64,000 bases of DNA from a virus. Lineage: Duplodnaviria; Caudoviricetes. The translations under genes and the position numbers were made by a program. Shown in pieces: positions 58,104 through 62,560 of the stretch; within the stretch, counting starts at the first letter, position 1; each line of letters begins with the position of its first letter. The DNA is taken from the IMG/VR virus record IMGVR_UViG_3300032321_001270, positions 1 through 64,000 of that record. One strand, given 5' to 3'. The notes below the pieces were generated by a model. It made no database searches. It was not told the DNA's origin and saw only the letters and a list, made by a program, of their open reading frames with translations.

Positions 58104-58396
58104 GAATCCTCCCTGAAACGAGGCCAATCGTGCGCACAACTCGGACAACGCCAGAAACTCACGCCGTCGTAATGATCTGGATGGTCATACGACAACTGCA
58201 CACCAATGAGACGGCTAAACTTATACGGGGGTGAATAATGCTCCCGTATCCACGCGTGCAGCTCCTCATCACTCTTATTGTCGCACCACGCTTGCGAACG
58301 TAGCGCGTCAAAGACATCGCCGGCATCCCAGTTAACACCGCATTCCGGGCACCGGCCGAATGGGTCCAACTTTGCTGTCTCTTCATTAAGTCGCAT
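58100..58396 (-). CDS. Zinc-ribbon hypothetical protein
   Basis: RCPECG...WRCPSC. Confidence 0.55.
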   Translation of the reverse strand: MRLNEETAKLDPFGRCPECGVNWDAGDVFDALRSQAWCDNKSDEELHAWIREHYSPPYKFSRLIGVQLSYDHPDHYDGVSFWRCPSCAHDWPRFREDS

Positions 58397-58637
58397 CGGC
58401 AAGCTCCTTCTGCGTGACGACGATAAACGAATCTTTCCCCGGCAACAGCGCCAAGCCGCGGCCGTTATCCCAGCGCACTGAGATCTGATGCCACTCTCGC
58501 GGGCCTTCAAAATTAACGGCGATAATCGTACCTTCCAATCCGACTGGCATATCCTTTTCAATAGGCATCCAATCAGAGTTCGGGTTGAGCATCGGTCCAG
58601 TTAATTTAACTCGCTGGCCGACTGCGTACGGTTCCAT
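58386..58637 (-). CDS. DUF4314-like protein
   Basis: VGQRVKL...MPVGLEGTI...ISVRWDNGRGLALLPGKD. Confidence 0.65.
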   Translation of the reverse strand: MEPYAVGQRVKLTGPMLNPNSDWMPIEKDMPVGLEGTIIAVNFEGPREWHQISVRWDNGRGLALLPGKDSFIVVTQKELADAT

Positions 58638-58733: not shown

Positions 58734-59333
58734 TCAGTCGTTCAGCAGCTCGGCGAGACGTTTGATCCCGCCGTGCCGCAGCACGAGACGGGTCACCGGG
58801 GCACGCTTCTTCTTGACAATCCGCGTAGCCAACTTCTTCACCGACACCTTGAACTTGTGCACAGCCGCCTTGGCCTTGCGCTTCTTCTTGCCCTGTGGGC
58901 TGGCCTGCTCCCGATGACTTTCCGACATCGGATTCAGCCTGTACAAGCCCGGGGGCAGCTTCCATCGGCCGTTGGGCCGATCGAACTTCCTGATCTGCGC
59001 ACGCAGACAGCCGGGCGTGGTGAACCGCACCTCGATCTTCTTTTTGACGTCGAAGATCTTGGTGATACCAGCGCCGATCTGGTAATCGAACTGACTGCCT
59101 GTTGCTTCGTCGAGCGCAAGCGCGACGACGCAGTAGCGGGCATCACCCGGCACAGCGTCAGCGATGTGCTGCGCTGAGATGTTGAACCAGAACGGTTCTC
59201 GGGCCAGCACGATCGTCCAGCTGGGATCGACCTCGTCCTTGAACGAGTCGCCCATCGCCCGAAGCGGCGAAGACGTATAACGATGTCGCTTGTGCACACC
59301 GTCCTTACGCGTCTTCTTATTATTAACAGCCAT
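58734..59333 (-). CDS. Basic hypothetical protein
   Basis: 199 aa, Lys/Arg-rich termini; GGAG RBS. Confidence 0.55.
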   Translation of the reverse strand: MAVNNKKTRKDGVHKRHRYTSSPLRAMGDSFKDEVDPSWTIVLAREPFWFNISAQHIADAVPGDARYCVVALALDEATGSQFDYQIGAGITKIFDVKKKIEVRFTTPGCLRAQIRKFDRPNGRWKLPPGLYRLNPMSESHREQASPQGKKKRKAKAAVHKFKVSVKKLATRIVKKKRAPVTRLVLRHGGIKRLAELLND

Positions 59334-59398
59334 GACAGAACGTCTCCCTACGTTTCATCGAACCACTGAACAACCCACGACAACGTGCCGAGGGCAAG

Positions 59399-59433
59399 AA
59401 AAAAAACCGGGCGGGCCCTTTACGGTCCGACCC
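59399..59433 (-). terminator. Intrinsic terminator closing the tmRNA/ncRNA unit
   Basis: GC-rich hairpin with GTAA loop followed by T8. Confidence 0.6.
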
Positions 59434-59434
59434 T

Positions 59435-59767
59435 ATAACCCAAGACTAGCTGCAGCTCTTCTTGGAACCCCTCCACGTCGGCAGCACGCCACGAGATTCC
59501 CCGCAACGATAGCCAAAGGTAAGGAGTACCCGGTTAAACAACGTTGTGACGGACACGCAGGCCGTCACGGGATATAGGACTTCGGGCTCATGCGTGAATA
59601 TTTGCCCCAGTTTCCCGGCTAACCTTTTTGAGGCGCCTTCGTCCACTACGTTGTTGTTCGAGACCCGGCTGTTAATTCAGCAATCTTACCCGTTGAAAGA
59701 TAAGACGCGGACGCAATGCCGCGGTGTTAATTCACTTCACTACCCGATGAAGGATAGTTCCGGGCTA
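59435..59767 (-). ncRNA. Candidate ~330-nt structured RNA downstream of tmRNA
   Basis: No credible ORF; nested long-range helices, GAAA tetraloop, own terminator. Confidence 0.45.
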
Positions 59768-60112
59768 TGGAGGCGGCGGGAGTCGAACCCGCGTCCAGAG
59801 ATATCTCCAGAAAGAACGTCTACGTGTGTAGGCAGTTGTTGTTTACACTCTTGCCAAAGTTAGCCGATTATCGGCGTCAGGTGGGCTACCACCATCTTGC
59901 CCTTTCTTACTGGGCCAGATCAGCCGATTATCGGCGTCAACCTGATTGGGCAATAAGGCTCAGGTCGCCTCACTCACTGGCCTATTAACTAGGCAGCGAG
60001 GGCCGGTGCAAAAGCGCCAGCTAGAAACGTAATCGGCTTTTAACGTGGCCAACCGATCAACCACGACACGCAGTCCTAACCTTCCTTATCCTGTCGATAC
60101 CAGTACGCCCCC
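59768..60112 (-). ncRNA. ssrA: tmRNA
   Basis: 5' GGGGGCGTACTGGTATCGAC and 3' GGACGCGGGTTCGACTCCCGCCGCCTCCA with a G3.U wobble; pk1; tag ORF ending ALAA-TAG (59989-60021); CCA not encoded. Confidence 0.92.
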
Positions 60113-60336
60113 GTATTGTTGTTGGCCATATTCCCATTGTGAGGCTGCGGCGCTGGTGGGCGCCTGCGTTTACCGCCAGCTCTTTTTAACGTAATTTATC
60201 TGGCGGCACCAACAACAAATTGAAAATCTCGCCGCAGGGATGTGGTGATTACACGTAGTTGCTACGCTCCCACGCACATTGAGGCTCATAACTTCCCCCT
60301 GCATTTCGCATCGCTGTACACACGCTGCCGAGACAA

Positions 60337-60410
60337 TAACCCGGGTGGGAGTCGAACCCACAACAAGTAGATCCTAAGTCTACCGCCTCTGCCAGTTGTG
60401 CTACCGAGTT
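60337..60410 (-). tRNA. tRNA-Leu (TAG) with a short variable loop
   Basis: GTAGA-CTTAGGA-TCTAC; T-loop TTCGACT; 5-nt variable region. Confidence 0.85.
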
Positions 60411-60547
60411 AAAAATTGATGAGTGTCGATTAGGGGTCGCTTCCGATATACGAGCCACGTGGATAGGCATACCGGGAAATCGAACTTAAAACCTCACTAC
60501 CTCCTGCCGGGGATCAGCCGGAACAGTTCAATGGTTTTACTCATCAA

Positions 60548-60620
60548 TGACCCCACGGGGATTCGAACCCCGGTAAACGGAACGAAAATCCGTTGTCCTA
60601 GGCCACTAGACGATGGGGCC
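60548..60620 (-). tRNA. tRNA-Glu (TTC)
   Basis: ACGGA-TTTTCGT-TCCGT; full cloverleaf. Confidence 0.92.
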
Positions 60621-60629
60621 ATTGTCGTC

Positions 60630-60815
60630 TCAGTCTACCTTCTCGACGTTTAGCGCGATAAGAAAACCACACATTTGCGCGAACGTGATCAGCTGCTTCT
60701 CTTTGAGTTTGAAGAAATCTGCAAAGTGAGTAAACAGATCACAAGGCGACAGATCTGTCGGGTTTTGCGTTTCGCGCAACTTAGATATCAATTCAGCGGC
60801 TCTTTCCAGCGTCAT
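60630..60815 (-). CDS. Hypothetical protein
   Basis: Start re-called at MTLERA (AAGGAG RBS). Confidence 0.5.
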   Translation of the reverse strand: MTLERAAELISKLRETQNPTDLSPCDLFTHFADFFKLKEKQLITFAQMCGFLIALNVEKVD

Positions 60816-60851
60816 CTTCTTGCTCCTTCGTGTAAAGATAACAAAACTCAT

Positions 60852-60922
60852 TGGGCCGCCAAGGAATCGAACCTTGCGTCGCGAGTTAATAAGACTCGCT
60901 TGCCTACCAGTTTCCGCGGCCC
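60852..60922 (-). tRNA. tRNA-Ile (TAT) with a reduced D-arm
   Basis: Perfect acceptor, T and anticodon stems (CGAGT-CTTATTA-ACTCG); only 17 nt between acceptor and anticodon stems. Confidence 0.75.
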
Positions 60923-60985
60923 GCGTGGGCGGGGCGCCAGCAGCTTGGGCTACTGCCAGCGCCCCGCCGTCAGCGAGTCTAACGC

Positions 60986-61330
60986 TTACCGATAGCGCTT
61001 GCACGCATACCAGCGGCCATCCCTGCCTCGCGCGACCCCTTGATCAACAACCCTCATTCCGCTGCGGCTGTAGCAGCAGTTATTCAGAGCCTGCTCGGGC
61101 GTGGAACCGGCGCCAACACCCTCGTAGCCTGAATTACCACCACAGTGCCCCATAGCACCGCGACTTGCCTGCATCTCTGCGACGCCTTGCGCCGTAGAGT
61201 TAGTGTAGGCATAGCTGCGCACAGACGGGATTGGCGTCGAACTGGTATAGCGTCGTACTACAACAGGGCCGTCGGCATGCGCAACGCCGACAACAGAGAG
61301 CGCCAATAGCGAAAGAAAAACGCGAATCAT
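60986..61330 (-). CDS. Exported small protein, CAP/SCP-like C-terminus
   Basis: Signal peptide; GHCGG..GYEGVG...ALNNCCY...GVARGRDGRWYACKRY. Confidence 0.55.
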   Translation of the reverse strand: MIRVFLSLLALSVVGVAHADGPVVVRRYTSSTPIPSVRSYAYTNSTAQGVAEMQASRGAMGHCGGNSGYEGVGAGSTPEQALNNCCYSRSGMRVVDQGVARGRDGRWYACKRYR

Positions 61331-61392
61331 ACGATCCTCCGTGACAAACCAAACAAACCACAGCCCGGAACATTTCTGCGCCGGGCTGACAG

Positions 61393-61466
61393 TAGGCGCA
61401 AAGGGACTCGAACCCCTAACCCCCTGCGTGTAAAACAGGTGCTCTGACCAATTGAGCTATGCGCCT
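61393..61466 (-). tRNA. tRNA-Val (TAC)
   Basis: CCTGT-TTTACAC-GCAGG; full cloverleaf. Confidence 0.92.
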
Positions 61467-61472
61467 GCGAGT

Positions 61473-61829
61473 CTAACCCGCGTGTTCTAACTCTCGACGA
61501 CGACGTGCTCGTGCCCAAGGCGACCGATTCCAATACCAGCCCCGCCAACGATTGCAATATCCACGCCACCGCCGGCGCAACTTGTGATACCACTTGTTGC
61601 GGCCGATGGTGGTTAAATAATGCTGCGTCCAGAAGCTCATCGACTCGTCCGATGTTCCGTCGATATAGCTTTCCCCGCAATCGAAGCACCGATTCGCCGG
61701 TACGCGAAACACCGGAACTTGGTGTTGCTGTCCGTCAATCAGCATCGACATGACGTCATTGAATTCAACGGCTTCAATACGCCCACCGCAGTGCATGCAC
61801 TTTAACGACTTGTAAATTGGCTTACCCAT
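61473..61829 (-). CDS. YgiT/MqsA-type zinc-finger protein
   Basis: CMHCGG...VPANRCFDCGESYID; GGAGG RBS. Confidence 0.6.
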   Translation of the reverse strand: MGKPIYKSLKCMHCGGRIEAVEFNDVMSMLIDGQQHQVPVFRVPANRCFDCGESYIDGTSDESMSFWTQHYLTTIGRNKWYHKLRRRWRGYCNRWRGWYWNRSPWARARRRRELEHAG

Positions 61830-61841
61830 GTCGCCCTCCAA

Positions 61842-61926
61842 TGGCCAAGGCGGGAATCGAACCCGCACGGGAAGTTATTCCCAGCGGATTTTAAGTCCGC
61901 TGCGTCTGCCGTTTCGCCACTCGGCC
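61842..61926 (-). tRNA. tRNA-Leu (TAA)
   Basis: GCGGA-CTTAAAA-TCCGC with a long variable arm. Confidence 0.95.
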
Positions 61927-61935
61927 AACCGCCTG

Positions 61936-62232
61936 CTAAACCAGCGCCGGATCTTCCCGCTCGGCGGGAGCAGGATACTTGTCGGGGTGACCGATGTGCA
62001 TGAACTTATCGCGCCCCGACCGACTATGCGTGCCGCATCCTGATCGCAAAATCATTGCTTCCTTGAAGTACTGATACACGCGATCGATGTCCAGATACTC
62101 ACGATACGTCAACCCAGCCTCCAATTGCCGCGGCCGATCCAGCATTTCTCGCAGCGTATTCAAATGCTCGGCGATCTTGTCGTTGTAGTACTCGGCCGTC
62201 GTTTCCAGATCATCTTTGCCGTTGTTGATCAT
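61936..62232 (-). CDS. Hypothetical protein
   Basis: Start re-called at MINNGK (GAGG RBS). Confidence 0.5.
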   Translation of the reverse strand: MINNGKDDLETTAEYYNDKIAEHLNTLREMLDRPRQLEAGLTYREYLDIDRVYQYFKEAMILRSGCGTHSRSGRDKFMHIGHPDKYPAPAEREDPALV

Positions 62233-62440
62233 ACACGTACCTCTTGTCCCCAATTTGACACCACCAACGCTGCCCATCATTCCAGTAGATGGGTGTAACA
62301 GACGCTGACGGGGGTTGCAACTCGGTCGGTTTCGGGTGGGCTTTTTGATACTCTTCGTAGCTTTCCCACGCGATTCCGGCCAACATCAGCAACGCCGTGA
62401 TCAACCCGATTAAGTTACCTTTAATCTCGATCCCCTTCAT
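62210..62440 (-). CDS. Small single-TM protein
   Basis: AAGGAGG RBS; LIGLITALLMLAGIAW. Confidence 0.55.
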   Translation of the reverse strand: MKGIEIKGNLIGLITALLMLAGIAWESYEEYQKAHPKPTELQPPSASVTPIYWNDGQRWWCQIGDKRYVYDQQRQR

Positions 62441-62486
62441 TTCAAACCTCCTTGTTTAGAAATGAAACCCAAAAAGAATCCCCCAA

Positions 62487-62560
62487 TGCCTCCTCTAGGA
62501 TTCGAACCTAGGACCAACGGATTAAAAGTCCGATGCTCTAACCAGCTGAGCTAAGGAGGC
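62487..62560 (-). tRNA. tRNA-Lys (TTT)
   Basis: TCGGA-CTTTTAA-TCCGT; full cloverleaf. Confidence 0.95.

Follow-up and report, generated by a model that had tools for sequence, protein, structure and literature searches.

Stable RNAs without known purpose have long been recognised in the tRNA arrays of phages, among them RNAs C and D of T4, GOLLD, and ROOL. The locus described here raises the question of what stands directly behind a phage tmRNA gene and, if it is an RNA, how it might be made and what it might do. The window, that is, the whole stretch of DNA analysed, comprises the first 64 kb of an IMG/VR virus record of 205,188 bp from an uncultivated lake phage. A preliminary description had placed an undescribed structured RNA at 59435-59767, next to the tmRNA. 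The adjacency was correct; the tmRNA lies on the minus strand, so the interval is its 3′ side. Comparison with nine homologous loci showed the region to be a conserved, non-coding RNA at the 3′ end of the tRNA-tmRNA array, with a predicted structure of three modules, S, D1, and D2 (Table 1).

Table 1. Features of the tmRNA locus, in the numbering of the window
Feature	Position	Strand	Basis or remark
tmRNA, one-piece	59768..60112	minus	Rfam RF00023, 119.7 bits, full length; ARAGORN
tmRNA tag frame AGAFAPALAA*	59989-60021	minus	read from sequence
Module S, optional six-way junction	59663..59765	minus	comparison, z -2.92
S closing stem GCCCG/CGGGU		minus	around five hairpins ordered A-B-C-A′-B′
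S hairpin A	59739-59758	minus	
S hairpin B	59724-59735	minus	
S hairpin C	59706-59723	minus	
S hairpin A′	59684-59705	minus	
S hairpin B′	59668-59681	minus	
Module D1, three-way junction	59538..59654	minus	manual structural alignment, 10 sequences
D1 P1, 7 bp	59648-59654 with 59538-59544	minus	
D1 P2, 4 bp	59641-59644 with 59570-59573	minus	
D1 Px, optional stem	59617-59637	minus	absent in L076, L358, L401, L403
D1 P2b	59614-59615 with 59577-59578	minus	GG/CC; AA/UU and longer in L358; CAGG/CCUG in L076, L403
D1 internal loop AAACUG opposite GAAGU	59608-59613 opposite 59579-59583	minus	invariant AAACUR opposite NAAGN
D1 Py, 4 bp	59604-59607 with 59584-59587	minus	16-nt loop 59588-59603
D1 Pz, 7 bp and bulge	59562-59568 with 59546-59552	minus	9-nt loop 59553-59561
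Loop-loop (kissing) contact, Py loop with Pz loop, 6 bp	59553..59603	minus	covariation
Module D2, four-way junction	59399..59537	minus	RNAalifold and covariance model R1; z -2.86
D2 closing stem AACCGGGU with GCCCGGUU	59528-59535 with 59405-59412	minus	
D2 helix A, long, GAAU tip	59467-59527 (tip 59487-59508)	minus	
D2 helix B, inner hairpin with UGCA loop	59439-59466	minus	
D2 linker UUAUA	59434-59438	minus	
D2 helix C	59413-59433	minus	11-13-nt loop ending CGUAAA
U-tract	59399-59406	minus	

Genomic context of the locus

Five tRNA genes lie upstream of the tmRNA gene on the same strand (60336-62560). The tmRNA 3′ end reads ...CCUCCA followed by UAG, and CCA is not encoded; the phage tmRNAs of all relatives are likewise without an encoded CCA. 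ARAGORN prints a 25-residue tag (ADYVSSWRF...) in the wrong frame, and the plausible tag, AGAFAPALAA*, ends with the usual ALAA degron. The tags of two relatives are AGAYAPALAA (L003) and ALNSAPALAA (L403). Genes for SmpB, Ro60/TROVE, a CCA-adding enzyme, and a reverse transcriptase were sought in the 205-kb genome and none was found. Since the phage has neither a CCA-adding enzyme gene nor an smpB gene, the maturation and function of its tmRNA must depend on host factors. The first 80 nt of the tmRNA (60033-60112, minus strand) were closest, among 120 sampled bacterial loci, to the tmRNAs of three Planctomycetota MAGs (L166, L197, and L183; 78-80%), which gives a weak hint of a planctomycete host.

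A 199-aa basic protein without a Pfam match is encoded just past the RNA (58734-59333, minus strand), and its gene is present in only some of the relatives (L002, L003, and probably L396, in addition to the window). The next gene (58386-58637, minus strand) encodes a DUF4314 protein; on inspection of the sequences by eye, this gene appears to come directly after the RNA in L006, L076, and L358.

Homologues of the RNA

A protein-anchored search, DNA-pattern scans, and nhmmer yielded nine homologues (L002, L003, L006, L074, L076, L358, L396, L401, and L403), making ten sequences with the window. The IMG/VR records among them are 150-205 kb long where complete, and three further loci, L075, L077, and L126, were duplicates. 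Pattern scans of viral, metagenome, and genome collections returned these ten members only; the 14-mer and the AT-rich loop patterns gave nothing but chance matches.

The core formed by D1 and D2 (59399-59654) was present in all ten sequences, each time directly after a CCA-less tmRNA, and the order tRNA-Glu, tRNA-Leu(UAG), tmRNA, RNA was the same in all of them. The gene downstream of the RNA varies by locus, which indicates that the RNA travels with the tmRNA and not with any downstream gene. This linkage may come from shared ancestry rather than function, because the members belong to one clade with a conserved gene order.

Two contigs deserve mention beside these members. L126 (RGVZ01000259.1, "bacterium isolate WB9_2_064") is a 5.2-kb contig filed in a bacterial MAG. 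Its sequence agrees with L074 from the tmRNA 3′ end through the spacer and the core, with the same nhmmer score for the core and 100% identity in the 38-nt spacer. Probably this is DNA of a phage that was binned into the MAG, or else it hints at the host. L387 (1100-1650, minus strand) is an AT-rich viral contig with a tmRNA 69% identical to that of the window and also CCA-less, and no RNA trails it. A sigma-70-like promoter and a small gene stand in its place.

A structured, non-coding RNA

The minus strand of 59395-59767 folds better than shuffled sequences (z -2.69), in contrast to the plus strand (z -0.58), and the modules folded singly gave z values of -2.4 to -2.9 each. D2 contains many G-U pairs, which would read A-C on the plus strand. 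The minus strand was assigned on account of these G-U pairs and the z-scores of the two strands.

Standard pairs make up about 97-98% of the modelled pairs, and both sides have changed in 7 pairs of D2, 11 of D1, and 5 of S. Compensatory changes were found in every variable helix as well as in the loop-loop contact. The claim of an undescribed structured non-coding RNA is thus borne out, both by the compensatory changes and by the absence of an Rfam match or a published description. Its outline required revision in two respects. The region is structured as claimed, and the boundary is not at 59435, as the feature reaches the U-tract at 59399; in place of a single fold of about 330 nt, there are three separately folded modules. 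The invariant letters in unpaired loops exceed what a terminator needs.

The earlier view that the region holds no credible ORF agrees with the comparison: stop-free runs vary in frame and length among the homologues, and the indels are not multiples of 3. A 66-codon ORF with a GTG start is present at 59446-59646 (minus strand) of the window and is not kept in the homologues.

Module D2 and the U-tract

D2 was modelled with 43 pairs in nine sequences, in which 97.9% of the cells are paired. When the partners were moved by 1-3 columns as a control, the paired fraction fell to 35-52%, and only 0-1 pairs had changed on both sides. The closing stem is invariant, and it is therefore supported by its invariance and position, without covariation. 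In all ten members, a run of 3-8 U comes directly after the stem AACCGGG(U)/(G)CCCGGUU. A terminator had been proposed at 59399-59433. A stem followed by U8 is indeed present, and what does not hold is the simple hairpin: the letters comprise helix C and the 3′ strand of the D2 closing stem. The "loop" of this stem is the whole D2 fold of about 120 nt, and a consensus terminator scan gives no call.

Covariance model R1 gave 139-160 bits for the nine members searched, and no score elsewhere exceeded 18 bits; L403, the tenth member, was found later and was left out of the R1 scoring. Neither the remainder of the phage genome nor 48 further viral tmRNA-end loci yielded another D2 in this search, and no D2-like RNA was found beside 100 bacterial tmRNA genes with the same 3′ end. 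An 18-bit match downstream of a tmRNA end in L393 was judged a false positive, since it lies inside the integrase gene of a prophage att site.

Module D1 and its loop-loop contact

The D1 alignment was segmented by hand and each segment was checked on the raw sequence, as MAFFT fails across members with and without Px. The resulting model has 24 pairs, with 96.7% of the cells paired in the ten sequences. RNAalifold, applied to four Px-less members, gave the same nested helices plus a possible CU/AG pair inside the internal loop. Covariance model R2, built on Px-less D1, misaligns the Px-bearing members from inside Px, and it was excluded from the pair counts.

The letters of the kissing contact fall into two versions: the window and L396 share CACGCA/UGCGUG, and the remaining eight members have GUAUGC/GCAUAC. 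All six positions have changed on both partners, with complementarity kept. When the loops were shuffled, a strict 6-bp run was reached in 0.5% and 1.6% of cases for the two versions. The change in this predicted contact is one evolutionary switch and not many, yet all twelve letters are coherently altered.

Several pairings noted earlier can be placed in this model. The nested pairing AACAACGT/ACGTTGTT corresponds to helix P1 and the 7-bp hairpin at 59546-59568 to helix Pz, both upheld by comparison with the nine homologues. Three others did not survive. Sequence changes disrupt the CCGG-GAAA-CTGG tetraloop hairpin in L396 and weaken it in five other members (L002, L006, L074, L076, and L403); its letters belong to Px (CC), to P2b (GG with CC; AA/UU in L358), and to the invariant internal loop AAACUR. 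The CTCA/TGAG pairing is lost in L003 (CUCA vs CGAU). The GGAC/GTCC pairing was probably in the wrong register, because L396 (GGGU/ACCC), L074 (GGAU/AUCC), and L076 (GGAC/GUCC) pair with the AUCC beside Pz.

Two further pairings were considered and rejected. The alternative Py suggested by RNAalifold (GGG of GGGAAAC with CCC, inner GGGUG/UGCCC) contains mismatches in the window and in L076, and it would clash with the kissing contact. A pseudoknot GUCCUAUA/UAUAGGGU linking D1 and D2 is disrupted in both L074 and L076. Possible tertiary contacts between D1 and D2 were also sought by testing all pairs of columns for covariation; with ten related sequences, the outcome was far too noisy.

Module S and the spacer

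The further 5′ hairpins of the preliminary description turned out to be module S, a conserved six-way junction. S is built of tandem double hairpins, in which the A-type loops (UUCAUC / YYUCAWC) and B-type loops (AAUUAA) are invariant. The module is 100% identical in the window, L002, and L006, and absent from L003, L358, and L396. L403 carries a diverged copy that keeps all 32 pairs, 5 of them changed on both sides; its central hairpin has been swapped outright, with the A-type (UUCAUC-like) and B-type (AAUUAA) loops unchanged.

The members differ in how far D1 lies from the tmRNA. The gap is 1-3 nt in L003, L358, and L396, and 112-114 nt in the window, L002, L006, and L403; L074 and L076 have a hairpin of 36-38 nt, and L401 has a spacer of 103 nt. 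The hairpin of L074 and L076 covaries (CUAGC/GCUAG vs UUAGC/GCUAA). Judging from these arrangements, different small RNA modules can be exchanged in the spacer position. The modules other than S are the hairpin in L074 (1751-1788) and L076 (4969-5004), of the form GAGGG.../...CCCUC with the covarying inner stem, and the L401 spacer (619-721), which has a further structured insert of about 70 nt.

Three ideas about S were discarded. It is no repeated mobile element, being single-copy in the genome and without another copy among about 400 loci. An H-type pseudoknot between the hairpin A loop and GUGAAG within S is not kept in L403. Pairing of the AAUUAA loops with a UUAAU of the tmRNA fails as well, because L403 has S without the motif and L003 has the motif without S.

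Mosaic evolution

The sequence identities to the window differ among the parts of the locus. L002, L003, and L006 have tmRNAs that are 98% identical, with only 67-68% identity in D1 and 81-87% in D2. In L074 and L076, conversely, the tmRNA is 54-57% identical and D2 is 92-94% identical. L396 combines a tmRNA of 65% identity with a D1 of 90%, and it shares the kissing-loop version of the window. From these discordant identities, it appears that tmRNA, spacer, D1, and D2 recombine as cassettes, which points to frequent recombination between related phages at the module borders. D1 and D2 are nevertheless always found together behind the tmRNA, despite their discordant histories.

Search for known RNA families

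At the gathering threshold, Rfam 15 (4227 models) identified only the tmRNA and tRNAs in the window. Relaxing the search to E≤10 on 901 nt and 276 nt gave just a 13.7-bit chance match to a snoRNA, and a search of the homologues L358, L401, L075, and L403 found nothing inside D1 or D2. GOLLD, ROOL, OLE, raiA, and HEARO gave no match at E≤10, neither ARAGORN nor RF00005 found a tRNA in 59399-59767, and a blastn search of the RNA against 50,697 phage genomes found no match. No description of an RNA behind a phage tmRNA was found in the literature searched; a paper on jumbo phages and tmRNA genomic islands deals with islands that integrate at the ssrA of bacteria and has no bearing on the present RNA (PMC12595487).

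The absence of RNase P signatures, noticed earlier, was confirmed by cmscan, which gave no RF00010 or RF00011 match. The P4-like letters do not covary: "AAGUCC" and "AACCGGGUAC" are superficially alike to RNase P, and the U of AAGUCC varies (U/A/C) opposite an invariant GGGUAC without compensation. The permuted two-piece tmRNA RF04321 matched with 13-25 bits (E 0.007-3) against the 47 required, and these matches extend into the trailer from an anchor on the T-arm of the real tmRNA, which, unlike RF04321, is a complete one-piece molecule. Matches to YrlA (RF02553) reached 14-28 bits against a threshold of 69 and lie on tRNA and tmRNA parts; the phage genome has no TROVE gene. A group I intron (RF00028) gave no cmscan match; a complete tmRNA stands upstream, and no exon-like sequence comes after the U-tract. 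The RNA is a new family that matches no catalogued one.

Proposed biogenesis and role

Co-transcription with ssrA seems close to forced, because in three members the spacer, at 1-3 nt, is too short to hold a promoter, and a consensus scan predicted no sigma-70-like promoter between the tmRNA and the RNA in the window. The RNA would form the last part of the tRNA-tmRNA precursor transcript. The endonuclease cut by which the CCA-less tmRNA acquires its mature 3′ end would create the 5′ end of the RNA, and termination at the U-tract right after the GC-rich closing stem of D2 would create its 3′ end, so that D2 may double as the operon terminator and as a block to 3′ exonucleases. The compact RNA thus released might act in trans by its shape, which is the weakest step of the proposal. 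A candidate recognition surface, for a protein or for other copies of the RNA, consists of the invariant unpaired letters, namely CGUAAA, the GAAU and UGCA loops, and the internal loop AAACUR/NAAGN. We give about an even chance to this reading as a whole, a stable RNA released from the tRNA-tmRNA precursor and acting in trans, with D2 also ending the operon.

The RNA could instead be a purely cis-acting 3′ module of the tmRNA operon, with roles in termination behind a very strongly transcribed gene, in 3′ maturation of the CCA-less tmRNA, and as an exonuclease shield, and with no life after processing. Such a module would be expected to adjoin the tmRNA and to end in a stem and U-tract, as the RNA always does, and the variable or absent spacer and the absence of a partner protein gene in the genome are in keeping with it. 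Read-through from ssrA into downstream genes is reported to matter in Streptococcus pyogenes M1UK (PMC9951164). Termination or protection, however, would require far less than two domains with a covarying kissing contact and so many invariant unpaired letters. Moreover, the related phage L387, with a CCA-less tmRNA, manages without the RNA, and a D2-like RNA was found at 0 of 100 bacterial tmRNA loci. We regard a purely cis-acting module as rather unlikely.

A more specific form of action in trans appears doubtful. The RNA might be a dedicated partner of the phage tmRNA, for example by capturing or replacing a host trans-translation factor such as SmpB, which the phage does not encode, or by otherwise re-programming ribosome rescue during infection. 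Or it might be a self-assembling oligomer, in which the loop-loop contact and the palindromic UGCA and AAUUAA loops would act between molecules, by analogy with phi29 pRNA, ROOL, and GOLLD.

A new catalytic RNA, for instance a ribozyme that cleaves itself to release the tmRNA 3′ end or to split D1 from D2, is improbable. The multi-way junctions, the loop-loop contact, and the strictly conserved asymmetric internal loop do recall small ribozymes, and the RNA is located at a processing site. Yet there is no Rfam ribozyme match even at E≤10, and the distance of 1 to 114 nt between the tmRNA end and D1 disfavours precise cleavage at the tmRNA terminus. Self-cleavage would also be expected to interfere with tmRNA maturation, as a 2′,3′-cyclic phosphate end blocks CCA addition.

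It is likewise improbable that the locus is a riboswitch-like attenuator, in which D1 would be a ligand-sensing aptamer that controls the D2 closing stem and hence termination ahead of the downstream genes. D1 is aptamer-like in its P1-closed junction, its optional variable stem, and the conserved letters of its internal loop; its kissing loops resemble those of purine and lysine riboswitches, and a terminator-like end follows D1 and D2. A regulator of this kind is difficult to reconcile with downstream genes that vary among the loci, with the absence of any Rfam riboswitch match and of any alternative anti-terminator pairing in our models, and with D2, a large conserved fold unlike an expression platform. 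The reading of the region as chance hairpins between genes, or as a gene for a small protein, is already refuted, despite the 66-codon ORF of the window, by the loss of that ORF in the homologues, by the compensatory changes and the slid controls, and by a conservation of the region as high as that of the adjoining tmRNA or higher.

Under the preferred reading of a released, trans-acting RNA, the locus would show that large phages carry a ribosome-rescue RNA together with a companion RNA. If the companion interacts with the trans-translation machinery, it would represent a new viral way of manipulating translation quality control. Its minimal form, 93+135 nt in L358, is a small target for work on structure and function.

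Comparison with known RNAs

Among the RNAs hidden in phage tRNA arrays, the present one is a compact case that is well defined by comparison, with two obligatory domains, a covarying kissing contact, exchangeable extra modules, and a fixed place behind a phage tmRNA. RNAs C and D of T4 are made from tRNA precursors and released by tRNA-processing enzymes, and their role has been unexplained for about 50 years. Mazzara, Plunkett and McClain are said to have described these small stable RNAs (species 1 and 2) of the tRNA gene region in 1981, in PNAS 78:889. Like them, the present RNA is phage-encoded and non-coding and lies in, or ends, a phage tRNA cluster. Its length is roughly double theirs, optional modules accompany its two obligatory domains, and it goes with a tmRNA, which T4 is not known to have. 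There is no sequence similarity between the two, on the assumption that the 50,697 phage genomes searched include T4.

GOLLD and ROOL are ornate RNAs of phages and prophages, often beside tRNA genes and without a known role, in which kissing loops matter; GOLLD is known from lake metagenomes (PMC12286853). At 260-370 nt, the present RNA is smaller than these RNAs of about 580-800 nt.

D2 and tRNA have only topology in common: a closing stem of 7-8 bp, three arms, and a linker of 5-6 nt before a 5-bp arm, which in both stands one nt from the 3′ strand. For D1, the closest parallels are two. The "tuning fork" aptamers of purine riboswitches have a P1-closed three-way junction with arms joined at their tips by loop-loop pairing. 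D1 shares the P1 junction and the tip-joined arms, but it has none of the junction letters of the class, no Rfam match, arms of unequal length, and no consistent downstream gene. The pRNA of phi29 also has a three-way junction, and two of its loops stay complementary by concerted change between phages; they pair between molecules and thereby form a ring on the portal. D1 resembles it in the junction and the covarying loops, whereas pRNA lies outside tRNA arrays and has no sequence similarity to D1. The contact in pRNA is intermolecular, and that predicted in D1 could be intra- or intermolecular.

The proposed biogenesis has parallels in E. coli 3′ETS-leuZ and mammalian MALAT1/mascRNA, in which the endonuclease acting on a neighbouring tRNA-like molecule during its maturation generates one end of the RNA. 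The 3′ETS is short or unstructured and MALAT1/mascRNA is eukaryotic, whereas the present RNA is a large conserved fold behind a tmRNA.
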